Positions 608 to 15,135 of a stretch of 64,000 nt of DNA are shown here, piece by piece; the first letter of the stretch is position 1; each line of letters opens with the position of its first letter. The translations under genes were made by a program, and so were the position numbers. Source of the DNA: a virus; IMG/VR virus record IMGVR_UViG_3300049846_002130, positions 1 to 64,000 of that record; one strand, 5' to 3'. The notes under the pieces were generated by a model, which searched no databases, had not been told where the DNA came from, and saw only the letters and a program-made list of their open reading frames with translations.

Positions 608-1060
608 TTAAGTTACTACACCGATGGCCCCCTGGAGGTAGGCATCCCGGAGGTTAGCCCCTTCGAGGTTGGCCCCCCGAAGGTCAGCCCACCGGAGGTC
701 AGCCCCCTGGAGGTCAGCCCCCTGGAGGTAAGCTCCACGGAGGTAGGCCCACCGGAGGTCAGCCCCCCGGAGGTAAGCGTCCTGGAGGTTGGCCCCCTGG
801 AAGTCGGCATCCTGGAGGTAAGCGTTCTGGAGGTTGGCCCCCTGGAAGTCGGCGTCCTGGAGGTGGGCTCCCTGGAGGTTGGCCCACCGGAGGTCAGCCC
901 CCCGGAGGTTAGCTCCCCAGAGGTTAGCTCCCTGGAGGTTGGCCTGTTGAGGCACGACGTCCTCTCCGACAGGACCGGCTTCGAAGCCTTGGCTTCGAAG
1001 CCAAGCTTGGTGGGGTCCGTACCAGGGATACCTAGCTGAAATAGCAGCATGATCAACCAT
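608..1060 (-). CDS. Pentapeptide repeat protein, paralogue 2
   Basis: AGGAGG RBS; leader ARYPWYGPHQAWLRSQGFEA followed by ~22 A(D/N/Y)Lxx repeats. Confidence 0.92.
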   Translation of the reverse strand: MVDHAAISARYPWYGPHQAWLRSQGFEAGPVGEDVVPQQANLQGANLWGANLRGADLRWANLQGAHLQDADFQGANLQNAYLQDADFQGANLQDAYLRGADLRWAYLRGAYLQGADLQGADLRWADLRGANLEGANLRDAYLQGAIGVVT

Positions 1061-1238
1061 AATTGCCTCCTTTAAAAATAGTTACAATTTTCTGTTCTTG
1101 AGCTCTTGTAATAAATACTATAGGCATATTGTAAGTCTTTATAAGATACAGAGCGTCTCGAAATGCAGCCTTTAAGTACGGGTACTTCATGCACCTCATA
1201 AAGCTCCAACCACCAATATCATCCCAATGAACGTACAT
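1053..1238 (-). CDS. Hypothetical protein
   Basis: 61-aa ORF in a tightly packed leftward run. Confidence 0.55.
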   Translation of the reverse strand: MYVHWDDIGGWSFMRCMKYPYLKAAFRDALYLIKTYNMPIVFITRAQEQKIVTIFKGGNYG

Positions 1239-1246
1239 TTAGTTTC

Positions 1247-1567
1247 CTAAAACAAAATGAAGTCCTTCTTACAAGCTAAATCGGAGGCATTATCAATAAT
1301 CTTACACAAATCTGCGTTGAGTAGATAAAACCACTCCCATGCATCATTAAGATTCCCACACTTTGGAGTTAAAACTTGGCCAACCCACCTAATACAAAAG
1401 GCCTTATAGTCCCAAGTTCCAATATGTTTATTGTTCTTATAGGAACGAGAATCAACAAGATAAATCTTGTTTTGGTCGATACGAAACTCTAAAGAAGCTT
1501 CATAGCCACCTCCCTTATAAGTTGTTGTATAGGTGTTATCGTTCTTAATAAGATTATATTCACTCAT
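1247..1567 (-). CDS. Hypothetical protein
   Basis: Probable start MSEYNL overlapping the upstream stop; 106 aa. Confidence 0.65.
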   Translation of the reverse strand: MSEYNLIKNDNTYTTTYKGGGYEASLEFRIDQNKIYLVDSRSYKNNKHIGTWDYKAFCIRWVGQVLTPKCGNLNDAWEWFYLLNADLCKIIDNASDLACKKDFILF

Positions 1568-1778
1568 CCGCTTCAATCTCCGCAATTAAAGTAGTTACTT
1601 CGTAAGCTGTTAACACTGGTGTTGTTTTAAGATAGTCTTTAACCTTAGTAAGAATCCTATCTACTCTACGATATTCACTGTAGAGTTCTGCTAATACACC
1701 AGCCTCAGCTAGCATATCTGCTTCTTCTAAATGTTGACCAACAACTTGTAGTTCTTGGTCTTGGTACTCTGACCACAT
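1560..1778 (-). CDS. Hypothetical protein
   Basis: 72 aa, coupled to neighbours (TAATG overlap). Confidence 0.65.
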   Translation of the reverse strand: MWSEYQDQELQVVGQHLEEADMLAEAGVLAELYSEYRRVDRILTKVKDYLKTTPVLTAYEVTTLIAEIEADE

Positions 1779-2017
1779 TAGATGTTACTCAAACGTAAGC
1801 AACAATGAATAGCTTTACCAAGCTGATGAATAAAGAAGTCTTGCTCCTGCTTATTAGCCTGCTTATACCACTTTGTGTATCGATTAATATTTAATACAGT
1901 ATCAAGCTTAAGTGTATTAAGGAGTGCCTGGCCTTCAAACGATTCTTGCCCGGTAATCAAAGCAAGCCTAAGGTAGTTTAGTAACCTGTGCCAATAAAAA
2001 TACTCAAAGGAAGTCAT
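1778..2017 (-). CDS. Hypothetical protein
   Basis: AAGGAG RBS, 79 aa. Confidence 0.65.
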   Translation of the reverse strand: MTSFEYFYWHRLLNYLRLALITGQESFEGQALLNTLKLDTVLNINRYTKWYKQANKQEQDFFIHQLGKAIHCCLRLSNI

Positions 2018-2026
2018 GTTGGCTCC

Positions 2027-2230
2027 TTAGTCAGGACAAACTAGCTTAAAGTTTTGATCATTAGGACCATCCCATAAGATCCCTGTAATAGCATAGAGAT
2101 CATCATAGTCTGAAGAAGTGGTAGTCACTATGCCTTCATATGGTGAATGCTCATGAGTCTTGGGCCCAATAGTTAATACCATACCGATATATTCATAGCT
2201 CTTGCCATCATCATCAGTAAAGAAAAGCAT
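2027..2230 (-). CDS. Small protein ending in VCPD (family member 1)
   Basis: GAGGA RBS before MLFFTDDDGK...; ends NFKLVCPD*. Confidence 0.65.
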   Translation of the reverse strand: MLFFTDDDGKSYEYIGMVLTIGPKTHEHSPYEGIVTTTSSDYDDLYAITGILWDGPNDQNFKLVCPD

Positions 2231-2347
2231 TGGGTCCTCGCTCATAGTTCCAGATATCTGCAAGAATCCACTCTTCAAGCTCAGTCAGTAAAACAACTAC
2301 TGGACCACTAGGTGTCCATACAGCCCAACAGGTCATTGTTATCTCCT

Positions 2348-2506
2348 TTAATGACTAACTAAACTAGAAATTAAGTAGCCTATGCCCATTCCACCAATAA
2401 TAAAAGCCCAAGCATCTCTATCATCATAAGGTGCGCACTTCATTGGGTTTCTAAATGTAAGTAAAACAAATACTGCTATACCAAGAAGACCCGGGATTAT
2501 TGCCAT
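2348..2506 (-). CDS. Small membrane protein (52 aa, two hydrophobic segments)
   Basis: Manual translation MAIIPGLLGIAVFVLLTFRNP...AWAFIIGGMGIGYLISSLVSH*. Confidence 0.55.
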   Translation of the reverse strand: MAIIPGLLGIAVFVLLTFRNPMKCAPYDDRDAWAFIIGGMGIGYLISSLVSH

Positions 2507-2745
2507 CTGGTTTCCCAGCAATCTCTTGTAATCGAGATAAAGTCTTGTAACTCTTCTTCAGTAAGATTTCTTGCTAGCCAAGCTAACAGTAACGTACAGT
2601 TATGAGAACTTTCGTTAGTCAAAAACGGACGTAAGTTAATAATTCGGTCCTTATAAAACTCTGGATTAAATCCAATGGCAATTAAGTTAAAGCACTTAGC
2701 AACTTCTGTATAGAGCTGAAGCTCAATTGATGTAAAGTCTAACAT
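2497..2745 (-). CDS. Hypothetical protein
   Basis: 82-aa ORF, overlaps neighbours in operon style. Confidence 0.6.
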   Translation of the reverse strand: MLDFTSIELQLYTEVAKCFNLIAIGFNPEFYKDRIINLRPFLTNESSHNCTLLLAWLARNLTEEELQDFISITRDCWETRWQ

Positions 2746-2872
2746 TTGTCCATCCAGATATTAAGCCAATCAGGTGTCCACGCACATGGAATGCCAGGTC
2801 TTAACATCCAGGGAATAAAGACCTCGGGAACCTCTTGTTCTTGCATGCGAAAACCAAGATCACAATATGGAT

Positions 2873-3157
2873 TCACTTGAGTTCTCGCATCAATACACCA
2901 GGTTCATCAATCCATACCTGAGTATCATCAGAACCAGGTGAGTAAACTGGGATAGTAGCCTCTACCGGCACTTGAACTAAAACATAGCCAGCTGGAACAT
3001 CAAGAAGCCGACGAATATAAGCAGCATCTGCAATCCGCTGCTCATAAGGTCTGTCGGCACTAATATTTGTAGAACAAACAACCCAAGTAGTGTCCTTATC
3101 AGAATCATAAGCACAAACATCTGTCTCATCAGTACCAAGATGATAGGTAATAGGCAT
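2873..3157 (-). CDS. Hypothetical protein
   Basis: AGGAG RBS before MPITYHL. Confidence 0.6.
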   Translation of the reverse strand: MPITYHLGTDETDVCAYDSDKDTTWVVCSTNISADRPYEQRIADAAYIRRLLDVPAGYVLVQVPVEATIPVYSPGSDDTQVWIDEPGVLMRELK

Positions 3158-3350
3158 AGTAGCTCCTAGTAGTCTCATCAACAACAGAGCCGTCAGGCAC
3201 TAAGTTAATAAGCTTCTTTAGCTGCCTTCGCGCCCGCTTTCTAACCAAGTGCTTAACTGCTTTAGGATTATCAAACAAATGAATTGTTGGACTATCCATT
3301 AATGTGTAATCTACACCTGGTTTCAGTCCAGCTTTCTTAAAATCATCCAT
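3129..3350 (-). CDS. Hypothetical basic protein
   Basis: Start MDDFKK coupled to upstream TAA (TAATG). Confidence 0.55.
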   Translation of the reverse strand: MDDFKKAGLKPGVDYTLMDSPTIHLFDNPKAVKHLVRKRARRQLKKLINLVPDGSVVDETTRSYYAYYLSSWY

Positions 3351-3592
3351 TAGAAGTTCTTGATTAAATATTGATGAATTTGCACTACAATCGTAGTTAT
3401 TATCAGCCATATACTACTGGCAATTAACGGATAACGTATATACCATTGGTAATTATTAAAAACTTGTGGCATAGAATAAATTATATCAACAGTAAGTAGA
3501 CCTACTGGAACACTTAATATGGTTAGTATTTTTAATATTACTGGTAACCTATTTATATCTAACCACCAATACTTATCTGGTTGCTGCATCAT
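3350..3592 (-). CDS. Small membrane protein
   Basis: Two hydrophobic stretches in 80 aa. Confidence 0.55.
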   Translation of the reverse strand: MMQQPDKYWWLDINRLPVILKILTILSVPVGLLTVDIIYSMPQVFNNYQWYIRYPLIASSIWLIITTIVVQIHQYLIKNF

Positions 3593-3938
3593 ATTCTCTT
3601 TCTATTCTAAGTAAGTCAGTGTAGAACCGTTCATCTAGTTCTCTACCTGCTTGAAACTGAATAACCCATGCTTGATTTTCAGACATGATTAACCTATCAG
3701 CATGATACTGAGTAGCTATCTCGCGTCTACGAGTATGAAAGGCATCAGTCACAACTGCCCTATCAGCCAGATACTTGCTAATGGCTTGCTGAATATCTTG
3801 CTTAGGAGGTTCAATAATTATAGGAATATCTTCTGCTTGTAGTGGTAGCTCGCGGGGTGATTCAAACATTACAACACCTACTAGCCACATAAGAATAGCT
3901 ACTATAACTATGGTAATAATTAACATACTAAGCCCCAT
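3573..3938 (-). CDS. Membrane-anchored hypothetical protein
   Basis: N-terminal hydrophobic helix LIITIVIVAILMWLVGVVM, then helical domain. Confidence 0.6.
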   Translation of the reverse strand: MGLSMLIITIVIVAILMWLVGVVMFESPRELPLQAEDIPIIIEPPKQDIQQAISKYLADRAVVTDAFHTRRREIATQYHADRLIMSENQAWVIQFQAGRELDERFYTDLLRIEREYDAATR

Positions 3939-4060
3939 CTAAACAATATCTACTAAGCTTCTGTAGCTCAGTAAGTAGTCATTGCTGTTCTTCAGGAGTT
4001 GCATCCTTATCAATAGCTCCTATTTCTCTTCCTATTCCATATGTATTATTCATATTACTC

Positions 4061-4207
4061 CTAATCTGGACAAACCAGATTTGTATCAGTGCTTAGCCAG
4101 TACATGAAGTATCTGCCTGGCTGATCCTGTATATAAACGGTATCATGACAATTGTATATAACACTGGGTACTGCATGCCCATAGTACCGTCCGTATTTAA
4201 ATAGCAC
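4061..4207 (-). CDS. Small protein ending in VCPD (member 2, 48 aa)
   Basis: AGGAG RBS, GTG start: MLFKYGRYYGHAVP...TDTNLVCPD*. Confidence 0.6.
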   Translation of the reverse strand: MLFKYGRYYGHAVPSVIYNCHDTVYIQDQPGRYFMYWLSTDTNLVCPD

Positions 4208-4216
4208 GCTTCTCCT

Positions 4217-4390
4217 TTAGTCTGGACAAACTAACTTACAAAAGCCATTAACAATTCTCATTTCTGAGTAAGTGTTAAACATTGAACTACGGGTATTCAC
4301 TACCTGAATACAAACCCAATCAGGCAATGTATTCCACATGATGTTGTTGGTTACTACATGACCATAGTACTGGCCCTTAAAGAATACCAT
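4217..4390 (-). CDS. Small protein ending in VCPD (member 3, 57 aa)
   Basis: AAGGAG RBS; MVFFKGQYYGHVVTNNIMWN...NGFCKLVCPD*; close paralogue of 5093-5266. Confidence 0.7.
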   Translation of the reverse strand: MVFFKGQYYGHVVTNNIMWNTLPDWVCIQVVNTRSSMFNTYSEMRIVNGFCKLVCPD

Positions 4391-4527
4391 TACTTCTCCT
4401 TATACAGAGTAGGCTGATTACTGGGGCTCCGCGCGCCCTTTGAAGAGACTCTTCAATACACTTATCAAAAAAAATTCACGCTTGGTTTGACGCTTCCACT
4501 GAGCACGCTGATTGTGTCGAGCCATTG

Positions 4528-4893
4528 TTACTCCAATGGAATAGGAATAATTCCTGGTGGGCCACTTGGGGCCATTAAGCCACTTTCTGAATGCTCTAAT
4601 CCAAAGCAATGACCTAGTTCATGAGCTAGCGTACTAGTATCATACTTATATTGTAATAGTACTATGCAGTCAGTACCGTCAGGTACTGTGTAACCTAAAA
4701 TATTGGGAGGCAATGCATGTGGTGTCCATACCACTAGCACCTGCCCCCGCGCATTCTGATTACTAGTCTTATGGGCAGACCAACTATTAGCAGCTAGCTG
4801 AATAGTAAGTGAATCAATACTTACTGATTCAATCTGCTTATAACTACTAGCTGGATAATCTCTATAGAATATGGCGAGAAATAAGCAGAACAT
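4528..4893 (-). CDS. Small metzincin-type zinc metallopeptidase
   Basis: HELGHCFGLEH (HExxHxxGxxH) plus Met-turn GLMAP; AGGAG RBS before MFCLFLAIF. Confidence 0.8.
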   Translation of the reverse strand: MFCLFLAIFYRDYPASSYKQIESVSIDSLTIQLAANSWSAHKTSNQNARGQVLVVWTPHALPPNILGYTVPDGTDCIVLLQYKYDTSTLAHELGHCFGLEHSESGLMAPSGPPGIIPIPLE

Positions 4894-4900
4894 GTTGCTC

Positions 4901-5083
4901 CTACTCTGTGTGTCTAATCTTAGTAACCTGACGCCGCATAGGTAGTTCATCATCTCGCCACTGGCATTCAATGATAATAGCCTTGCGTGCAATTTCTTCA
5001 GCTTCAAAAACATCCTTGGCTTCTACTTCAATAGTAGCCAAACGCCTAGTAGTCTCAACTACTTGTACTTGATACTTATGCAT
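4901..5083 (-). CDS. Small protein, DpnD/PcfM-like
   Basis: KYQVQVVET..LATIEVEAKDVFEAEEIA pattern resembles this family (from memory). Confidence 0.45.
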   Translation of the reverse strand: MHKYQVQVVETTRRLATIEVEAKDVFEAEEIARKAIIIECQWRDDELPMRRQVTKIRHTE

Positions 5084-5092
5084 GTGGTGCTC

Positions 5093-5266
5093 CTAATCTG
5101 GACATACTAATCTACAAAAGCCATTAACTACTCTAAACTCAGAGTAAGTATTAAACATTGAGCTACGAGTATTTAGTACATGAATATATGCCCAATCAAG
5201 TAATGTATTCCACATAATGTTATTGGTTACTACGTGACCATAGTACTTGTTCTTAAAGAATACCAT
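5093..5266 (-). CDS. Small protein ending in VCPD (member 4, 57 aa)
   Basis: MVFFKNKYYGHVVTNNIMWN...NGFCRLVCPD*; recent duplicate of 4217-4390. Confidence 0.7.
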   Translation of the reverse strand: MVFFKNKYYGHVVTNNIMWNTLLDWAYIHVLNTRSSMFNTYSEFRVVNGFCRLVCPD

Positions 5267-5439
5267 GTCTTCTCCGGGCGAAATCAATACTTTACAAGTA
5301 TTCCAATTATTACGTCTACAACATATTGTAAATTAATATTCTCTATAAGCTAAGTACTAGCCTATATGAGGAGTTGAGAGCTAATGATTAGTACCCTGTT
5401 GAGCAGGATTACTACTACTGGCTCTAAAATCAAGCTTGC

Positions 5440-5868
5440 AGGCCCCTAACGGGGCCTATTTTTAATTTATGGTTTTGAAGGATGTTGTGCTATACTTGTA
5501 CTAAAGGAGTAAGTGTGGCCACTAGTGAGTATAGGGGAAGTCCTGCTGGACGCTACAGCAAGTATAAGGAGAAAGCCAAATGTAGAGACCTCAGCTTTGA
5601 CCTTACCTTTGAACAATTTATGGATTACTGGCAACAATCTTGTACATATTGTGGAGCTTCAATCTTAACTATTGGTTTAGATTGAATGGACTCTACTAAG
5701 GGATATACCTTAGATAATATTCTCTCCTGTTGTACTCAATGTAATCGTATGAAAAGTAACCTTTCAACAAAACAATTTTTAGATTGTGTTAAAAGGATTT
5801 ACGAAAACTCTTGTTCTTGAAACCTTCTTATTCCTTTGTCTAAAGGAAAGTGTTGCCCCTAACGGGGC
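5440..5868 (+). repeat. 14-bp direct repeat GCCCCTAACGGGGC (hairpin) flanking the HNH pseudogene
   Basis: Copies at 5442-5455 (within AGGCCCC-TAAC-GGGGCCT, 5440-5457) and 5855-5868. Confidence 0.8.
5482..5820 (+). pseudogene. HNH-family endonuclease interrupted by an in-frame TGA
   Basis: CTYCG...IGLD*MDSTKGYTLDNILSCCTQCNRMK; TGA at 5683-5685 falls where GLDR has Arg (CGA to TGA); frame continues to TGA at 5818-5820. Confidence 0.8.
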
Positions 5869-5881
5869 CCGCCTTGTGTCT

Positions 5882-5914
5882 TACTTCACTTAAATGCGAT
5901 ACTTAAGTGAAGTA
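5882..5914. promoter_or_regulatory. 12-bp inverted repeat directly upstream of the HTH gene RBS
   Basis: TACTTCACTTAA-N9-TTAAGTGAAGTA; right arm abuts AGGAG. Confidence 0.6.
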
Positions 5915-5924
5915 GGAGTAGAAC

Positions 5925-6152
5925 ATGAGACGACAATTTAAAAAGAGTCCGAAGCGTCATCAGCTCGGAGTACATTTGCGCTCCGTCAGGCGCACTATTA
6001 CAACACAGGAACTTGCTGATGCTTACGGGGTTAGCACTCGTACTATCAAGACTTGGTTCTCTACAGGTAAGTTAGTTTTTACTGGTAACCTGTTTGAGGA
6101 CTTAAAGATGTTGGAGACCCTTCGACAGGATCCCCAACACCCTAGTACGTGA
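5925..6152 (+). CDS. Helix-turn-helix DNA-binding protein (excisionase/MerR-like)
   Basis: TTQELADAYGVSTRTIKTWFSTGKL HTH pattern; AGGAG RBS. Confidence 0.8.
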   Translation: MRRQFKKSPKRHQLGVHLRSVRRTITTQELADAYGVSTRTIKTWFSTGKLVFTGNLFEDLKMLETLRQDPQHPST

Positions 6153-6312
6153 TCCTGGTGTAGCCACACTTGGTACACTTGAGACCTTGTGTAAAGCAAC
6201 CAGGTAATGAGCTGTTGATGCAGGCTCCTCGTGGGAGGATACCTTTCATGAGGGCGATATGGCCTGCTGGTACTAAGACCAGTCCAGGTTTCATGTTGTG
6301 TTCACATTGCAT
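6142..6312 (-). CDS. Small Zn-ribbon-like protein
   Basis: MQCEH...CTKCGY; GAGG RBS. Confidence 0.55.
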   Translation of the reverse strand: MQCEHNMKPGLVLVPAGHIALMKGILPRGACINSSLPGCFTQGLKCTKCGYTRITY

Positions 6313-6319
6313 TGTTGCC

Positions 6320-6523
6320 TCACATGTTGGTGTAAGCGGCGTAGGCGAGGCCGCCACAGAGAGTGACCAGCATGGCGATGAACCAGTTGGCCACGATCCA
6401 GTTGGCGGCGCTGAAGTACGGGTCGTTGTCGATGAGGTTGAGTAGCCCTGCGCAGAGCCCGTAGATGTTCATCATCCCCAGGAACACTGCTGGTACTCCG
6501 AAGAGTACGACGATGAAGATCAT
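6320..6523 (-). CDS. Small membrane protein
   Basis: 67 aa, hydrophobic; TGATG coupling to upstream pilin-like ORF. Confidence 0.65.
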   Translation of the reverse strand: MIFIVVLFGVPAVFLGMMNIYGLCAGLLNLIDNDPYFSAANWIVANWFIAMLVTLCGGLAYAAYTNM

Positions 6524-6666
6524 CACAGCACCCCGCTGGCAACACCGATGCAGTAGAGCAGGTACACCAGCACGGCACACCCGATGGCACCAAAGAACAG
6601 GGTGATGCTGACGATCATCAGCTCGATGACACTCACGCCCTGCTCGTCACGAAGGAACTTGATCAT
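6523..6666 (-). CDS. Type IV/Flp prepilin-like peptide (47 aa; not in ORF track)
   Basis: GAGGAG RBS; MIKFLRDEQG|VSVIELMIVSITLFFGAIGCAVLVYLLYCIGVASGVL*: G(-1), E(+5), long hydrophobic helix. Confidence 0.75.
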   Translation of the reverse strand: MIKFLRDEQGVSVIELMIVSITLFFGAIGCAVLVYLLYCIGVASGVL

Positions 6667-6931
6667 GCTCTCTCCTCGGCCAGTGGGCCTCCAGCCACTC
6701 GAACGCAGCTGGAATCTTGTTGTTGTCGTAGAAGCAGTCGTACGGCTTGTCGGAAGTGAAGTTGCGAGCCAAGCTCGGCTGACACAGAGAAGCCAGGTTC
6801 ACCAACGCCTGTCCGTCTCGCCACCCCATGCTCCTGAACCAGTGATGGAATTTGTTGGTCCAGTAGAAGTGTACGAACTCCAGGTAGGAACACCCTACGA
6901 GCTTCCCTGCGATGTCACGTAGGTTCTTCAT
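6647..6931 (-). CDS. Hypothetical protein
   Basis: AGGAG RBS before MKNLRD. Confidence 0.6.
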   Translation of the reverse strand: MKNLRDIAGKLVGCSYLEFVHFYWTNKFHHWFRSMGWRDGQALVNLASLCQPSLARNFTSDKPYDCFYDNNKIPAAFEWLEAHWPRREHDQVPS

Positions 6932-6938
6932 GTTGCTC

Positions 6939-7148
6939 CTAGTCGTGGACACTCAGAACGCCTTGGATGAACGCCCTGGTAGCCAACACCAGATCCTCGG
7001 TATTGGCGTTGAGCTTGATGATCACGCAGTTCACACCGGGCTTGACATCCGGCCAGAGCTGCACTTCTCCTTCTGCTACCACGAGGATTCCCTTGGCTTC
7101 CACCACAGGAGTCTCTGGGACAGGGAGTTCTTGACACACTGGGTTCAT
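6939..7148 (-). CDS. Hypothetical protein
   Basis: 69 aa, AGGAAGG RBS, ATGA overlap. Confidence 0.6.
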   Translation of the reverse strand: MNPVCQELPVPETPVVEAKGILVVAEGEVQLWPDVKPGVNCVIIKLNANTEDLVLATRAFIQGVLSVHD

Positions 7149-7393
7149 GGGCGACCTTCCTGCTTGCGCTTTTCACGAGCGCTCTTGCTACACCACTCCA
7201 TGTCGAGCTTGATCTGCTCGTTGGTACGATTGGTGCTGATGTCGATCATGCAGTAGTCTGGACCACCCAGGTCCTGCATGACGAACGCTTTCTTGCTTGG
7301 GCTGTAGACGGTTGGGCAGCTGTAGTGAATGTAGAGCATACACCCACCACAACAGAGGAGTAACAACACTACGAAGCCAATGTTGTTCTTCAT
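7145..7393 (-). CDS. Exported/membrane-anchored Cys-rich protein
   Basis: MKNNIGFVVLLLLCCGGC signal-like N-terminus. Confidence 0.6.
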   Translation of the reverse strand: MKNNIGFVVLLLLCCGGCMLYIHYSCPTVYSPSKKAFVMQDLGGPDYCMIDISTNRTNEQIKLDMEWCSKSAREKRKQEGRP

Positions 7394-7400
7394 GGCGTCT

Positions 7401-7565
7401 TTAATCTGGGCACACTGCTTTGTAGCAGTGGTCATAGGCGTCAAGGTTGATGTGAGTGCGGACCCCACACCATGAGATGATTACTGTGTTGCTTCTGGGG
7501 TAGAAGGTTATGATGGTCCCAATGTATCGGTCTTTGGGTGTCCACCCTTCGATAGTGAGAATCAT
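7401..7565 (-). CDS. Small protein ending in VCPD (member 5, 54 aa)
   Basis: AGGAGG RBS before MILTIEGW; ends CYKAVCPD*. Confidence 0.65.
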   Translation of the reverse strand: MILTIEGWTPKDRYIGTIITFYPRSNTVIISWCGVRTHINLDAYDHCYKAVCPD

Positions 7566-7573
7566 GTTTCCTC

Positions 7574-7723
7574 CTAGATGTACACGACGTGCTGGGGGCT
7601 GATCATGAACAGCACCTTGGGGTTTGTCCACGAAGCCAGTACAGCCTGGCCTCGAATGATGTGCGTCAGGTAGCCCAATCGATGAGCATGGGCGGGGGCG
7701 CTACCATGGACCTTGATGAGCAT
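7574..7723 (-). CDS. Hypothetical 49-aa protein
   Basis: GAGG RBS; MLIKVHG...PQHVVYI*. Confidence 0.5.
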   Translation of the reverse strand: MLIKVHGSAPAHAHRLGYLTHIIRGQAVLASWTNPKVLFMISPQHVVYI

Positions 7724-7940
7724 TCTGCACCTCGCTGCTTCTGTGTGGGTTTGGAGGCTTTTACCAATGCTTTACAGACCCCCGTGTTTTTTGCAAAACG
7801 TAGAGGTTTGTTGAGCACCAGTATGGGTTTGGGAGTAGGGAGTGTGGGCTTGAACCACCAACAGGTGTGACTATTTGCATTTTGTCACTTTTGTTGTTAG
7901 CCTGGGTAATGCACTACCCGTTCATGCTCCCCGTGAAGAA

Positions 7941-8022
7941 TGCGCCCTCCCGGACTCGAACCGGGACTCCTTTCGGAATTTGATTTTAAATCAAACGCGG
8001 CTACCAATTACGCCAAGGGCAC
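7941..8022 (-). tRNA. tRNA-Leu, anticodon UAA (reads TTA)
   Basis: Acceptor GTGCCCT/AGGGCGC, D-loop AATTGGTA, anticodon arm TTTGA-TTTAAAA-TCAAA, long variable arm, T arm CCCGG-TTCGAGT-CCGGG; CCA not encoded. Confidence 0.93.
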
Positions 8023-8093
8023 AGAGAAAGTTTGCTATTTAGTTATATTTCCTGATATAGTTAGGTTACCAATTTCGACAGAGGAGGAAAATT

Positions 8094-8588
8094 ATGATAG
8101 CCGAAGACTACTACTCAAGACGGGACATGGCGAGGAGATTACTGGGTGGGATTTGTGTGAGGTGTGGGACGGAGCAAGACTTGGAGTTTGATCATATTGA
8201 TCCGATGTTAAAGACTCATAGTGTTAATAAACTACTAGCTTCTGGATCAACAAAGTTGTTGAATGAGCTTGCTAAGTGCCAGCTTCTTTGTAAGGCTTGT
8301 CATTTAGCTAAGACAGTTGCTGAAAAAGAACCCTTTACTCATGGGACCATGTATGGGTGGATGAGACGTAAGTGTGGATGTACTGTTTGCTCAGGGGCGA
8401 AGAGAGCTTGGTATGATCTTCGAAATGAGAAACGTCGAGGACTTGGTACTGTTGTTAAGGGAGCTTATTCTAAAGATCCTGTTCATGGTACTAGTGCTAA
8501 GTATTCTCGTGGTTGTCGTTGCAGTGAATGTCGTGCAGCTAATGCTGATAAAGAACGTAAACGTAAGAAATCTAAGGCGATTATATAG
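8094..8588 (+). CDS. HNH endonuclease with two HGT..C.C..C zinc modules
   Basis: CVRCG..DLEFDHIDP...CQLLCKACHLAKT; AT-rich, opposite strand, next to tRNA. Confidence 0.88.
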   Translation: MIAEDYYSRRDMARRLLGGICVRCGTEQDLEFDHIDPMLKTHSVNKLLASGSTKLLNELAKCQLLCKACHLAKTVAEKEPFTHGTMYGWMRRKCGCTVCSGAKRAWYDLRNEKRRGLGTVVKGAYSKDPVHGTSAKYSRGCRCSECRAANADKERKRKKSKAII

Positions 8589-8617
8589 CCCCTGGCCTTG
8601 GGAACCAGGGGCTATAT
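8583..8617. terminator. Hairpin between convergent genes (probable bidirectional terminator)
   Basis: ATATAGCCCCTGG...CCAGGGGCTATAT 13-bp inverted repeat. Confidence 0.7.
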
Positions 8618-8645
8618 CTCTTATTTGACTTGTTGGCCTGGTTGT

Positions 8646-9110
8646 TTAGACCGGGACCTCGGGATCTGCGTCGGCATCCACCACACCGGCTTCCGTGGTG
8701 GTGGTGGTGGGAACCGTCCCACCCTTGAGCTTCGCGAGCGCCTCGAGCGCTTCCGCGAGCGGCACACCGGCCCCCAACATGGTCTTGAGGTACTCGGGGC
8801 CTGGGTCGACCACCGTGGTGGCTCCGGCCTCCGGAGGCGTCAAGAGCAGATGGAAGTACGACCTCCACACCGTGCTCTCGCTTCCCGGGATGGGTGGGTT
8901 GGAGGCCTTGAAGACCTCCTCGAACTCGTTGACCGGGAAGTTGGCGCCCTTGAGCTTTGCGTAGGCGTCCTTCATGACCTCGAACTTGGCGGCGTCCGTG
9001 GTGGAGGCCAGTAGGTCGCGGGCGATGCCCACGCTGATCTGACCATTCCGACGCGCGGTGACCTCGAACTTGGCTCCGAGGATCTTCTTGACACTGGCAA
9101 CGTTGAACAT
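8646..9110 (-). CDS. Hypothetical protein
   Basis: AAGGAG RBS before MFNVASVKK; GC3-rich codons. Confidence 0.8.
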   Translation of the reverse strand: MFNVASVKKILGAKFEVTARRNGQISVGIARDLLASTTDAAKFEVMKDAYAKLKGANFPVNEFEEVFKASNPPIPGSESTVWRSYFHLLLTPPEAGATTVVDPGPEYLKTMLGAGVPLAEALEALAKLKGGTVPTTTTTEAGVVDADADPEVPV

Positions 9111-9127
9111 GTACTCTCCTTTGGATG

Positions 9128-9397
9128 TTATCCGGAACACTCGGCTGCGTCAGCAGCCGACAGCGCCTCACGCCACTTCACCACTCGCTTTCGCAAATCC
9201 CCAATGAAGAAGCCGGTCACGGCTTGATGTGCCAGCGTCACCGAGCCCTCAGCCAGTAGACCAAGGGCAACGAACAACGCAATGGGAATCACGAAGAACC
9301 AGAAGAAGGTCTCGAGTAGGTCGAGAATTGGGGTGAGCAGGATGATGGTAAGCACCACCGCGGCACTGACCACCACCTGAGTGACAGTCCACCTCAT
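9128..9397 (-). CDS. Membrane protein
   Basis: GGAGG RBS before MRWTVTQ; two hydrophobic helices. Confidence 0.7.
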   Translation of the reverse strand: MRWTVTQVVVSAAVVLTIILLTPILDLLETFFWFFVIPIALFVALGLLAEGSVTLAHQAVTGFFIGDLRKRVVKWREALSAADAAECSG

Positions 9398-10839: not shown

Positions 10840-13740
10840 TCAGGTCCGGTTCAGTGACCTTGTCAGTGACGAAAGCCACTGGCTTTCTGCTGACGCCTTG
10901 CGGGTTCTGATGGTGTTGACCACTTCGGAGGTCAACTTGGCCATGCAGTCAGGGCAATCCCAGAGTGGGATTCCTTGATCGTTGGCGTCCTTGATTTCCA
11001 GTTGGTGCTGGCTGCTTTTGGACACAATCCACGTCAGCTTCTGCGTGGGGTCTGGGTCCTTGAGAGCCATGTCGACACATCGTTGGAGTCGTTGCTCCCG
11101 ATGGAGAAACTGACACTCGTAGGTGTGTTCGATTCCCAGAATCTCCATGATGGGAGAGCCTGGGTAGCACACTGCCCGGAATGCATTGTTCAGGTTGGGC
11201 CTGAAGCTTTCGCTTGTCTCAGAGGTCTCGTGCTCCCAGATTTCGACGAGAGCAGTGATGCGCTCGCTTTCCGGAAGCTGAGCAAGGAACAGCTGAAGCT
11301 CTTCTTCGAGCTTCTGCTGTGCCCCAAGTACCTGGTTTGCCCTACGCTCTTCGTTGGCGGAGAGCGATGAGAGCGCATCGTTGTACTTGCCAAGACCACA
11401 CTTGGCTCGAAGGCCTTGTTGGTACTTGGTGTGATTGACAACGATATGTGGTACTACCACGCCCTTTGCTGCCAACACAAGCCTCAACAGTGGGTTGAGG
11501 TCAATGTTGGTCTTGCTCTGGAACTGAGGCTCTTCCTCTTCCCAGAGCTTGAAGCAGTGGCGTGCAGCGATGTGCACGAGGTTCTCATGTTCGCTGACGG
11601 GTGGCAAGAACCACTCATCAACGTTCACTCGTTGACCTCGGCGTCTCCACCACAGAGGGTCCAGGGCCTTCATCTTCCCATCGTCCTGAGCTGCACAGCA
11701 GCCGGCTGCGATGAGTCGACCATCCACCCACTCTTTCAGTCTCTTCATGGGGATCTCTCCCCCTTCGAGCTGATCGGAGGTGTAGCGGATGGTGAAGTGC
11801 CACCCATCTTCACGCTGCTCCCAATTCGTTGGGTCAGCAGCCTTTTCGATGTTGGACCACTCTGGTACTCGCTTCTGACGGTCAATGCACTCCTGAATCG
11901 CGATGCTCAGCGCACGAGCACCGTTCAGGTCACCGACTGCCAGAAGCCGCGACCGCCACACGGTACACCGACCCACTGGGCCACGATGATCGTAGCGCAG
12001 GTACTCCAGGCCCTCTGGAGTATTGGTCATCAACGGACCACCATTCTTGGCAGTCAGTTCCACACCTTTTGGTTCGATGTGGAAGATGTCGTTGTCGTTC
12101 CGGTAGCTGAACAGCTCCAGAATGTCTGGGCTGTCACTGACGCCCAGAATATCTCCGTCATCGTCACCCTGCATCTTGATCGTCAAGTCTGCAGGGTTCA
12201 TGATGATTTGGAATGGAGGCAGCTCATCGTTTACCAGATGATGAGCTTTGGGCTTGATGGTCTTCATGACTACCAGACCCTGAGGCAGAATCATTGGAAA
12301 CCTGAATGCTGCCACCTGCTTGCCGGGTCGCATGCCTGCAACCACACAGTGGCCAGCAGGCACAGTGGCGTCCAGACGAGCAACGTAGCTCCTGAACTTA
12401 CCACCTCCGCCCTGTTCCGTTCTTCCCAGGGTTCTGGCGAGACGGTCCTTGACCGCCTCTGCCACTCTGGGAATGTCCATCGGGGACACTGCGTGGCCCT
12501 CGGAACGAATCACGTTCACGAAGTCCACGATGCCTTTGATGGTGGTGTCACGCCTGGCGATTTGATTCACCAGGCCATCAAGGCCCTTGGCGAACAGTTT
12601 ACCCATGGCCTTGTCGACCATGTTGCGTACGACCTCTGCCGTACGACCGTTCACCTGGATATTCTCCAGCATTTCGAAGCTGCCGGAGATCCGCCGCGGA
12701 CGGTCCCATGCCTGCAGGATGCCGACGTAGCAGCCTCCCACAGCCTTGACCCTGTTGTCGGCCCGACGCTGCTTTGCCTCGGGCTTCCAGCGGCCCTTGA
12801 TTTGCGTCCAGTCGAGTACGATGCCCTCGACCTTGTCGGACGGGAAGATCGTGCCCTTGGCGAATAGCCCACTCTCGGGCTGCAAGAGCCGGAACTGGCA
12901 GGGCACAGCTCCGTACTTGGCTACGAATGCAGCCATCTCAGGACAGGTTGGGTTGTAGATGCCCGACCCGTCTGTTTTCAAGTCCACACCCTCCGCGTCA
13001 CGCAGAGTGGTGAACGTGACATTGGCGTTCTCGATGAAGCCCTCGGGGAGCACCGGGGCATTGAGGCCATGACAGTACGCAGACATGTCGATGGCCTTCG
13101 GGAATGCCTTGAGCAACAACTTGTAGGCTGGGTGGTCCATGTTCCAGCCCAGACGCTCACCGGAGACAGCGATGTGGAGGCTGTTCAGCTCCGCAAGGCC
13201 GCCCTTGAAGGTTTCGCGCCCCTCTTCGTCCTCTCGCTTGTCGATGGTCGACAAGATGTTCATCGCTACGGCAGAGGACTGCTGACCGTGCAGAACCCCG
13301 CTGATGAGAGCAAGGAGCCCAAAGCTCCGCAGCTCTCGATCGTAGCGCCACCGACACCGCTCCTCGTTGAGTCGGTAGAAGGTGTACACTGGCTCACGGA
13401 TGTACGTGAGCCGATTTGCTGTCCGCTTCTCGAAGCGCACCAGGCGCTCTTGAAGCCTCTTGATGTCTTTGGTGGCCAAGGTCTCGTATGCCAAGGTCAC
13501 CAAGTCTTCGGCAAATACTTCGGCCAGCTCACTGAATCCCATGGACGTGAACACATCCACGAGGTCCTCGATCTTGGTCAGGGGCTTCGTTTGCACCCTG
13601 GCCACGTAGTCGCCCAGCATGTCGCCGGGCAACTCCTCCTCCGTCCCCCGAGGCTCGTCGAGAGTGATGGAGTTCAGAAACTCCAGAACCCTCCGCTCCT
13701 CGTTGCGGATCTCGAAGTTCTCAACACTGAGGTTGTTCAT
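10840..13740 (-). CDS. Single-subunit two-barrel RNA polymerase, YonO/QDE-1 (cellular RdRP)-like; probable non-virion RNAP, 966 aa
   Basis: Ordered motifs TDGSG, QFR..AKG, WTQIKG, RFP, catalytic GDDDGD (12151-12168), VG helix, QECIDRQK; start MNNLSV at 13740 after AGGAGG. Confidence 0.88.
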   Translation of the reverse strand: MNNLSVENFEIRNEERRVLEFLNSITLDEPRGTEEELPGDMLGDYVARVQTKPLTKIEDLVDVFTSMGFSELAEVFAEDLVTLAYETLATKDIKRLQERLVRFEKRTANRLTYIREPVYTFYRLNEERCRWRYDRELRSFGLLALISGVLHGQQSSAVAMNILSTIDKREDEEGRETFKGGLAELNSLHIAVSGERLGWNMDHPAYKLLLKAFPKAIDMSAYCHGLNAPVLPEGFIENANVTFTTLRDAEGVDLKTDGSGIYNPTCPEMAAFVAKYGAVPCQFRLLQPESGLFAKGTIFPSDKVEGIVLDWTQIKGRWKPEAKQRRADNRVKAVGGCYVGILQAWDRPRRISGSFEMLENIQVNGRTAEVVRNMVDKAMGKLFAKGLDGLVNQIARRDTTIKGIVDFVNVIRSEGHAVSPMDIPRVAEAVKDRLARTLGRTEQGGGGKFRSYVARLDATVPAGHCVVAGMRPGKQVAAFRFPMILPQGLVVMKTIKPKAHHLVNDELPPFQIIMNPADLTIKMQGDDDGDILGVSDSPDILELFSYRNDNDIFHIEPKGVELTAKNGGPLMTNTPEGLEYLRYDHRGPVGRCTVWRSRLLAVGDLNGARALSIAIQECIDRQKRVPEWSNIEKAADPTNWEQREDGWHFTIRYTSDQLEGGEIPMKRLKEWVDGRLIAAGCCAAQDDGKMKALDPLWWRRRGQRVNVDEWFLPPVSEHENLVHIAARHCFKLWEEEEPQFQSKTNIDLNPLLRLVLAAKGVVVPHIVVNHTKYQQGLRAKCGLGKYNDALSSLSANEERRANQVLGAQQKLEEELQLFLAQLPESERITALVEIWEHETSETSESFRPNLNNAFRAVCYPGSPIMEILGIEHTYECQFLHREQRLQRCVDMALKDPDPTQKLTWIVSKSSQHQLEIKDANDQGIPLWDCPDCMAKLTSEVVNTIRTRKASAESQWLSSLTRSLNRT

Positions 13741-13859
13741 GGACCTCCTAAAGCTTAGCATTGGCTGCGTCAGCAGCCATAAAAAAGGGAAGGCCACAAT
13801 AGGGCCTTCCGGATTCAAGACAGAACCTTGATGGTCTATCCTATCACTAACTTTCTTTC

Positions 13860-14252
13860 TTAGCCGTCGATGCCGATGGCCCACCGGAGCTTAGCCCCCT
13901 GGAGGTAAGCCCCACGGAGGTTGGCCCCCTGGAGATTGGCCCCCCAAAGGTCAGCCTCCCGAAGGTCAGCCCACCGGAGGTCAGCCCCCTGGAGGTCAGC
14001 CCCCTGGAGGTCAGCCTCCTGGAGGTAAACCCACTGGAGGTCAGCCCCCCAGAGGTCAGCCTCCCGGAGGTTAGCCCCCCGGAGGTCAGCCCACTGGAGG
14101 TCAGCCCCCCGGAGGTCAGCCCGCCGGAGGTCAGCCCTCTGGGGCACGACACTCTCTTCAACAGCATGGGCTTCGAAGCCCTGGCTTCGAAGCCAAGCTT
14201 GGTGAGGCCCGTACCAAGGGAAGCGGGCCATGAGCTCAGTGTGGTTGGTCAT
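13860..14252 (-). CDS. Pentapeptide repeat protein, paralogue 3 (130 aa)
   Basis: GGAGG RBS before MTNHTELMARFPWYGPHQAWLRSQGFEA; A(D/N)L(R/Q)x repeats. Confidence 0.92.
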   Translation of the reverse strand: MTNHTELMARFPWYGPHQAWLRSQGFEAHAVEESVVPQRADLRRADLRGADLQWADLRGANLREADLWGADLQWVYLQEADLQGADLQGADLRWADLREADLWGANLQGANLRGAYLQGAKLRWAIGIDG

Positions 14253-14684: not shown

Positions 14685-15065
14685 CTAGTTGTTGTGCACC
14701 ACGAGCTTGATGACCCACGGAAGCAGGTTAAGCTCGTTGCCATCGATGGTGAAGGAGTTGTAGCAGGACTCCTCCAGCTTCTGCTTGCACCTCTCCAGCA
14801 GGAACTCGTAGGTATTCCGATCGTCGTAGCGGTACGGCCAGATGGCGTACATCGGATTGCTGTGCCGAGGCTTCCACTCCTCGTAGGTCAGGATGTGACG
14901 GTAGTACGTCGTGACCTTGATGGTCTCGTCCTCGATCTCGATCTGAACGTCCTGTCCAGGTCCACTCCTGCTACGATCCTTCAGGTAGCCATGGAAGGTG
15001 GTGGTCCCGCTGGTCTCCCAGATGAAGGCCCCCACCACGAACTCCACCCACTGCGCGTACGTCAT
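14685..15065 (-). CDS. Hypothetical protein
   Basis: AAGGAG RBS before MTYAQW. Confidence 0.75.
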   Translation of the reverse strand: MTYAQWVEFVVGAFIWETSGTTTFHGYLKDRSRSGPGQDVQIEIEDETIKVTTYYRHILTYEEWKPRHSNPMYAIWPYRYDDRNTYEFLLERCKQKLEESCYNSFTIDGNELNLLPWVIKLVVHNN

Positions 15066-15135
15066 TGTCTCTCCTTGTTGGTCACCATGACCATAAAAGA
15101 AGGGGTAGTTTATCCACATACCCCAGGTGGTTGGA

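Follow-up and report, generated by a model that had tools for sequence, protein, structure and literature searches.

The sequence analysed here (the window) comprises positions 1 to 64,000 of the 183,528-bp IMG/VR record IMGVR_UViG_3300049846_002130, which belongs to an uncultured freshwater phage. It is a contractile-tailed phage whose genes include a large terminase, a portal, and a sheath. Toward the left end of the window, five small open reading frames (ORFs) encode proteins that end in (L/A)VCPD. These ORFs had been reported in a first-pass annotation of the DNA, and all five were recovered on the minus strand with TAA or TAG stop codons. The members of this VCPD family are named below by the lower coordinate of each ORF.

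The leftmost member, v2027 (2027-2230), encodes 67 amino acids ending KLVCPD-TAA, with GAGGA located 4 nt before the ATG at 2230; public pipeline calls give a 72-amino-acid form that starts from an ATG at 2245. The tail cysteine is the only cysteine in this protein. The next member, v4061 (4061-4207), begins with a GTG codon preceded by AGGAG and encodes 48 amino acids ending NLVCPD-TAG. Its start codon lies 9 nt past the stop codon of v4217 (4217-4390; 57 amino acids, KLVCPD-TAA, Shine-Dalgarno sequence AGGAG). The fourth member, v5093 (5093-5266), likewise encodes 57 amino acids, ends RLVCPD-TAG behind the Shine-Dalgarno sequence GGAG, and is the first gene past an AT-rich intergenic stretch (5267-5440). 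The fifth, v7401 (7401-7565), encodes 54 amino acids ending KAVCPD-TAA, with AGGAGG before its ATG. Public pipelines called three of the five members (v2027 in its 72-amino-acid form), and v4061 and v7401 are absent from the public protein collection.

The shared ending is rare in this genome. Across the whole genome, VCPD-stop ends five of 2,441 stop-to-stop frames of at least 30 amino acids, with approximately 0.015 expected for any given tetrapeptide, and the five occupy no more than 5.5 kb of a single strand. When VCPD-stop was searched for as a degenerate DNA pattern, GTNTGYCCNGAYTAR, it was found five times on the reverse strand of the genome, zero times on the forward strand, and zero times in the control. 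No ORF of the genome beyond these five contains [VIL]CPD anywhere. A Shine-Dalgarno sequence stands at normal spacing before all five starts, and the members adjoin neighbouring genes head to tail, each stop codon being followed by the next start within 7-10 nt. Judged by these features of the DNA, the five ORFs are real protein-coding genes.

Constraint on the tail was examined codon by codon. The valine is encoded by GTT, GTT, GTT, GTA, and GTG, the cysteine by TGT in four members and TGC in one, the proline by CCT once and CCA four times, and the aspartate by GAC or GAT. Among the four members with leucine before VCPD, that leucine is encoded by CTA, CTG, TTA, and TTA. Of the 15 positions that make up the tail and stop codon, five are variable; all five are third positions and all five changes are synonymous. 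If variable sites were placed at random, the probability that they would fall on exactly the five third positions is 1/3003 by simple combinatorics. A common RNA fold was not found at the junction sequences (consensus −0.38 kcal/mol, no covariation). Additionally, a 60-amino-acid ORF in the same block (4901-5083) shares the TAGGAG-spacer-ATG junction with the family and does not have the VCPD ending. Because variation is synonymous only, no common RNA fold is seen, and the same junction occurs without VCPD, the constraint acts on the peptide and not on the DNA. The earlier proposals that the codons vary only synonymously and that the ORFs are real, related genes with a tail under peptide-level selection were thus borne out. 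The stop codon follows directly after the aspartate in 5/5 members despite lengths that range from 48 to 67 amino acids, and the tail cysteine is the sole cysteine common to all of them.

A second shared motif lies near the N-terminus. The first-pass annotation had described a loose N-terminal pattern, which proved to be real and sharper than stated: its general form is Y-[YI]-G-x-h-h-[T/P], and the sharper form is Y-[YI]-G-x-[VAI]-[VIL]-[TP]. Among 1,246 genome ORFs, the regular expression Y[YI]G.[VILA][VIL][TP] matches the five members only. When a 7-mer matrix was built from v4061, v4217, and v5093 alone (the trio; YYGH[VA]V[TP]), the corresponding segments of v2027 (YIGMVLT) and v7401 (YIGTIIT) scored in about the top 1% of the 1,246 ORFs. 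The histidine after the glycine of this motif is restricted to the trio. Apart from the tail, YIGMVLT is all that v2027 has in common with the other members, and the same holds for v7401 and YIGTIIT.

Kinship was also assessed without the tail, by cutting the last four residues from every genome ORF and searching the resulting database of 1,246 ORFs. Tail-free v4061 retrieved v4217 (E 0.006) and v5093 (E 0.047) as its best matches. Neither v2027 nor v7401 matched the trio or each other in this database (E > 1), and profile hidden Markov models (HMMs), hhalign, and BLASTP agreed. Three members had been called highly diverged at first pass; one of these, v4061, is homologous to the v4217/v5093 pair even without its tail, and for v2027 and v7401 homology does not reach statistical support. 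Only the trio is therefore demonstrably homologous, and homology of all five is likely from the sequences compared. As read from the alignments, the family has a bipartite signature (N-terminal motif and VCPD end), and the bodies between the two motifs have diverged past recognition. The bodies also differ widely in charge, with isoelectric points from 4.1 to 8.7.

Two further ORFs were considered in connection with these motifs. A possible sixth member at 137999-138265 was rejected, as it is an antisense ORF inside a 562-amino-acid gene. An early ORF of 144 amino acids (14685-15119, minus strand) begins MWINYPFFYGHG and is faintly like the FF..YYGH start of the family (E 0.45 to the family profile); this likeness is probably due to chance.

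The genes v4217 and v5093 share 82% protein identity and 84% DNA identity, with 12 synonymous and 10 non-synonymous codon differences. Using the Nei-Gojobori method, this pair (the only measurable one) gave a synonymous distance (dS) of 0.71, a non-synonymous distance (dN) of 0.092, and a dN/dS of 0.13; the two genes have unrelated flanks, as compared over 80 nt on each side. Given this dS and these unrelated flanks, the pair is an old duplication, and purifying selection acts on it along its full length. The earlier description of the two as recent duplicates therefore holds for the duplication and fails for its age. The label of a diversifying family was not supported, since the only measurable pair is under purifying selection and there was no evidence of positive selection. 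Old copies are again pointed to by v7401, which lies within a GC-rich early block and has acquired the composition of that block, its G+C content at third codon positions being 0.62 compared to 0.31-0.41 in the other four members.

All five members are similar in composition, with V, I, Y, F, W, and T accounting for 36-44% of residues and helix formers for 16-19%. An AlphaFold2 model of v4217, generated from the five-sequence alignment, is all-beta with about five strands, at a mean predicted local distance difference test (pLDDT) score of 53 and a predicted template modelling (pTM) score of 0.35. Strands were placed at residues 2-4, 7-13, 26-31, and 42-46, and the DSSP line adds a short strand or a bridge at 52-53, all at low confidence. 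The ESM Atlas model of v2027 (pLDDT 0.38) is worse than the v4217 model. By eye, each member sequence may be divided into five strands. The number of strands in the v4217 model invites comparison with small beta-barrels of the SH3/Sm-like type, but at the pLDDT and pTM given above.

Relatives of the family were sought in sequence, structure, and defence-system collections. Pfam returned 0 families at E ≤ 1, PADLOC returned 0 matches, and PDB sequences searched with the family profile returned 0 matches at E ≤ 10. There was no match to PHROGs at E ≤ 0.01, and the two stray hits (E 0.07-0.18) were to unnamed families and came from v5093 only. Nothing beyond self was found when v4217 and v7401 were searched, by word index, against 5.8 billion clusters, or when a full HMMER profile search was run over 1.84 billion protein representatives. 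No relative was obtained from IMG/VR searched with a single protein, from Joint Genome Institute (JGI) metagenome contigs searched with the trio alignment, from GenBank phages searched with v2027 and v7401 using tblastn, or from GenBank phages searched with the region using blastn. Two junction patterns run over IMG/VR yielded only an off-frame match inside another gene, and the early RNA polymerase used as a query gave no IMG/VR locus. The clusters returned by the ESM Atlas were all unnamed and had low counts of shared features; in the literature, the term "VCPD" led only to physics papers on contact potential.

Ten related phage records were found via TerL at 42-52% identity. The family profile had no match in five of these records, the VCPD-stop DNA pattern was likewise absent from five, and the CPD-stop pattern matched once in all ten, in a chance ORF of 5 codons. 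The region itself was present in three DNA runs from two studies, letter-for-letter identical and with no population variants, and no RNA run was listed. Since relatives are absent from the collections searched, the VCPD family is, on the evidence of these searches, restricted to this phage lineage, and the bipartite signature of the family is new. With only one uncultured phage known to carry the family, the reach of any result is limited for now.

Upstream of the cluster, which is on the leftward strand, are the early RNA polymerase gene (10840-13884) and tRNA-Leu(UAA), and nearly all neighbours of the cluster are ORFans. From this position, the family would be expressed before the late genes. 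A tie to pre-early promoter cassettes was rejected, as the cluster lies outside that zone and CTTTTAYGG sites, allowing up to one mismatch, are not found below 12.5 kb.

Between v5093 and v4217 lies an ORF of 121 amino acids (4528-4893, minus strand) with the sequence HELGHCFGLEH followed by SGLM. It is the sole HExxHxxGxxH gene of the genome and carries a zinc-site and Met-turn signature. In Pfam, its matches (Reprolysin, M66, and Matrixin) are confined to the motif region and all fall under the curated cut-offs, while comparison to PDB sequences gave MMPs (matrix metalloproteinases), karilysin, and ADAM17 at E 0.2-0.8. No relatives of this ORF were found by word search, and it is absent from the ten TerL-related records. 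Its AlphaFold2 model has a pLDDT of 45. Going by its motif, the product is a metzincin-motif protein and not an established peptidase. From 5266 to 4061, the genes follow each other closely along a single strand and look like one unit.

Several other features are located around these genes. A GC-rich hairpin (AGGCCCC-TAAC-GGGGCCT, 5440-5457), flanked by the adjacent HNH-like ORF and by the AT-rich region that precedes v5093, is followed by a T-run and is possibly a terminator that separates the two units. The HNH-endonuclease-like ORF (5482-5820, plus strand) runs opposite to the surrounding operon and has one in-frame stop (...TIGLD*MDSTKGY...CCTQCNRMK); neither half alone is significant in Pfam, and the ORF is either a decaying homing-endonuclease gene or a case of read-through. 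An intact HNH endonuclease gene (8094-8588, plus strand; phrog_4234, E 7e-31) is located just upstream of v7401, with tRNA-Leu(UAA) (7940-8023, minus strand) 70 nt away from it. Translationally coupled to v7401 is an ORF of 82 amino acids (7145-7393, minus strand) with a lipoprotein-like N-terminus (MKNNIGFVVLLLLCCGGC...), and small hydrophobic ORFs follow further on (6320-6666).

At the genome ends, a 127-bp "direct terminal repeat" (1-127 and 183402-183528) is found inside a pentapeptide-repeat coding region (608-1060, minus strand; Pfam Pentapeptide, E 3e-41). Instead of a physical end, this repeat may represent an overlap left by the assembly of a genome that is circularly permuted. Seven off-frame ORFs ending in PPGG are read from G+C-rich, repeat-like DNA; five are at the genome ends, in or beside the pentapeptide-repeat region, and the other two are at 13895-14074 and 177672-177806.

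The explanation that we favour, tentatively and at a probability that stays below even, is that the members are small beta domains in which the first strand and the last together make up a single conserved tip for docking on a common partner. In the first-pass annotation, a docking or targeting tail, or a cysteine for metal binding or modification, had been proposed, and all of these roles stay putative. The proteins would be small, beta-rich, and cytoplasmic, encoded where the leftward gene block is accessory and rich in ORFans. The first hairpin would lie beside the last strand, as in five-stranded small beta-barrels, and the resulting tip would present a tyrosine, the only invariant thiol, and the free carboxylate of the terminal aspartate. 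This tip would plug into one common partner, of host or phage origin, and the variable bodies would supply different second surfaces. The importance of the chain end itself is argued chiefly from the stop directly after the aspartate in every member, whatever its length. Large phages encode many small early proteins, and some of those studied inhibit host machines or defences with precision. In the VCPD family, the last four residues and a strand of seven have been frozen while the rest has changed, which marks where function must lie.

Several points weigh against this explanation. The bodies of v2027 and v7401 have no statistically supported homology to the trio, and VCPD resembles no C-terminal docking motif known to us (clamp, SSB, ClpX, or PDZ). 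The fold model of v4217 is poor, so that the juxtaposition of the two motifs is unproven. A common partner for the tip is hypothetical. Finally, the conserved residues could be purely structural. In that case VCPD would be the last beta-strand and its cap, forming a folding nucleus with the N-terminal tyrosine and glycine, and the variable surfaces would be the functional ones; the difference from the docking tip is only that the tail is given no role of its own. Such a structural tail is a possibility, if a rather doubtful one. It is in keeping with conserved positions confined to both ends of the chain, segments that pair with each other in many small beta domains, with the beta-rich composition and all-beta model, and with purifying selection on the whole body. 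Core positions, however, usually allow exchange among valine, isoleucine, and leucine (as those of the N-terminal motif do), whereas the cysteine, proline, and aspartate are invariant, and no member runs past the aspartate though every other position has changed.

Proximity to the metzincin-motif gene raises the question of a cysteine switch acting in trans, in which the tail thiolate, perhaps with the carboxylate, would cap the zinc of the 4528-4893 protein and the five bodies would be detachable latency or targeting subunits. The only gene of its motif in the genome does sit between family members in an apparent single unit, latency in MMPs uses the cysteine of PRCGVPD, a C...PD motif of all MMPs (PMC2989691), and minimal zincins exist, one of which has its own C-terminal carboxylate contacting a zinc-site histidine (PMC3890501). 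An unlikely explanation nonetheless, it must contend with a tail that differs from PRCGxPD, with a peptidase label that is motif-based (Pfam under cut-off throughout, poor fold model), with five paralogues for one enzyme, two of which (v2027 and v7401) are 2-3 kb away in other gene neighbourhoods, and with co-occurrence seen in a single genome. If true, it would be a trans-acting form of metzincin latency, with bodies that keep the enzyme latent or aim it at different host targets; we know of metzincin latency only as fused pro-domains or own-chain tails. Use of the cysteine as a redox, heme, or metal tip is improbable. Under this proposal, Cys-Pro (CP) would serve as a CP motif of the heme-regulatory type or as a metal or persulfide site, for sensing or sequestering a cofactor. 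Heme regulatory motifs have a CP dipeptide at their core, and the dipeptide is invariant in 5/5 members, with the only shared cysteine and, in v2027, no other; as a two-residue motif, its presence is very weak evidence. CP motifs usually precede a hydrophobic residue and sit in disordered segments, but here an aspartate and the chain end come after CP, and no second ligand is conserved, the histidine of the N-terminal motif occurring in the trio only.

Two remaining explanations would place the function of the tail outside the finished protein, and both fare poorly. A cis-acting nascent-peptide or termination signal, in which Pro-Asp-stop slows termination and tunes reinitiation 7-10 nt downstream, is very improbable. 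The last two residues of a nascent chain influence termination efficiency, and the next start is within that distance of 5/5 stops, with a Shine-Dalgarno sequence there as well in 4/5. The same stop-Shine-Dalgarno-start junction, however, follows a gene of the block without VCPD (4901-5083), and the known termination-stall peptides end in proline, not aspartate. Purifying selection also covers the whole 57-amino-acid body, the second motif is about 40 residues upstream and outside the exit tunnel, and a ribosome stalled at the stop codon would cover the downstream Shine-Dalgarno sequence. A repeat at the DNA or RNA level (a recombination junction or regulatory site), which the 15-nt near-repeat at five gene ends might suggest, is effectively refuted, as is chance. 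All variable sites are synonymous third positions and the leucine codons switch between CTN and TTA, the flanks are unrelated, the RNA fold is negligible and without covariation, and chance predicts only the small fraction of one such ORF given above.

Returning to the docking tip, were it to bind a host hub or cap the neighbouring mini-peptidase, it would represent a new short motif and perhaps a new form of metallopeptidase control.

The family was compared to known systems that share some of its properties. Identity as precursors of ribosomally synthesized and post-translationally modified peptides (RiPPs) was rejected because there is no maturase beside the members: among the larger ORFs of 608-9140, no Pfam family of the radical SAM, YcaO, or LanM type was found, several short ORFs there being unscanned, and the only enzyme-like neighbours within that interval are the metzincin-motif ORF and the HNH nucleases. 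Arrest or leader peptides of the TnaC/SecM type were rejected on the constraint over the whole body, the motif about 40 residues upstream, and the final aspartate. Analogies to CP12, TusA, the rubredoxin knuckle, microcin C, and AviCys were set aside as well, since their defining residues or positions do not fit.

The cysteine switch of MMPs (PMC2989691) is alike in having a cysteine followed closely by Pro-Asp, and the VCPD genes adjoin a metzincin-motif gene; in the MMPs, however, PRCG[V/N]PD is part of a fused N-terminal pro-domain, whereas here [L/A]VCPD-COOH is carried by separate small proteins and zinc contact is hypothetical. The 4528-4893 product resembles mini-zincins and snapalysin (PMC3890501) in being a zincin-motif protein of about 110-130 amino acids whose C-terminal subdomain is minimal. 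It has HExxHxxGxxH plus methionine (the metzincin type) in place of HExxHxxGxxD, would be shorter than snapalysin, and shows no sequence relation to them beyond the motif.

VCPD matches no described docking motif of the type found in the DDDIPF tip of SSB and the IGF loop of ClpX, but the arrangement is alike in that a very short invariant C-terminal peptide is placed on unrelated or variable bodies and the free end is conserved. Multi-copy families of small ORFans in large phages are also comparable. The VCPD copies are unrelated to these in sequence, with no PHROG match at E ≤ 0.01, and differ from them in being dispersed among other genes and not strictly tandem, and in being confined to one phage where such families are widespread. 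The two have in common several old paralogues of 50-100 amino acids, location in an accessory block, and a conserved terminal motif on diverged bodies. Small phage proteins that are old paralogues and keep a frozen motif at one end are known in kind, and the VCPD family is less a surprise than a well-defined target for cheap experiments.

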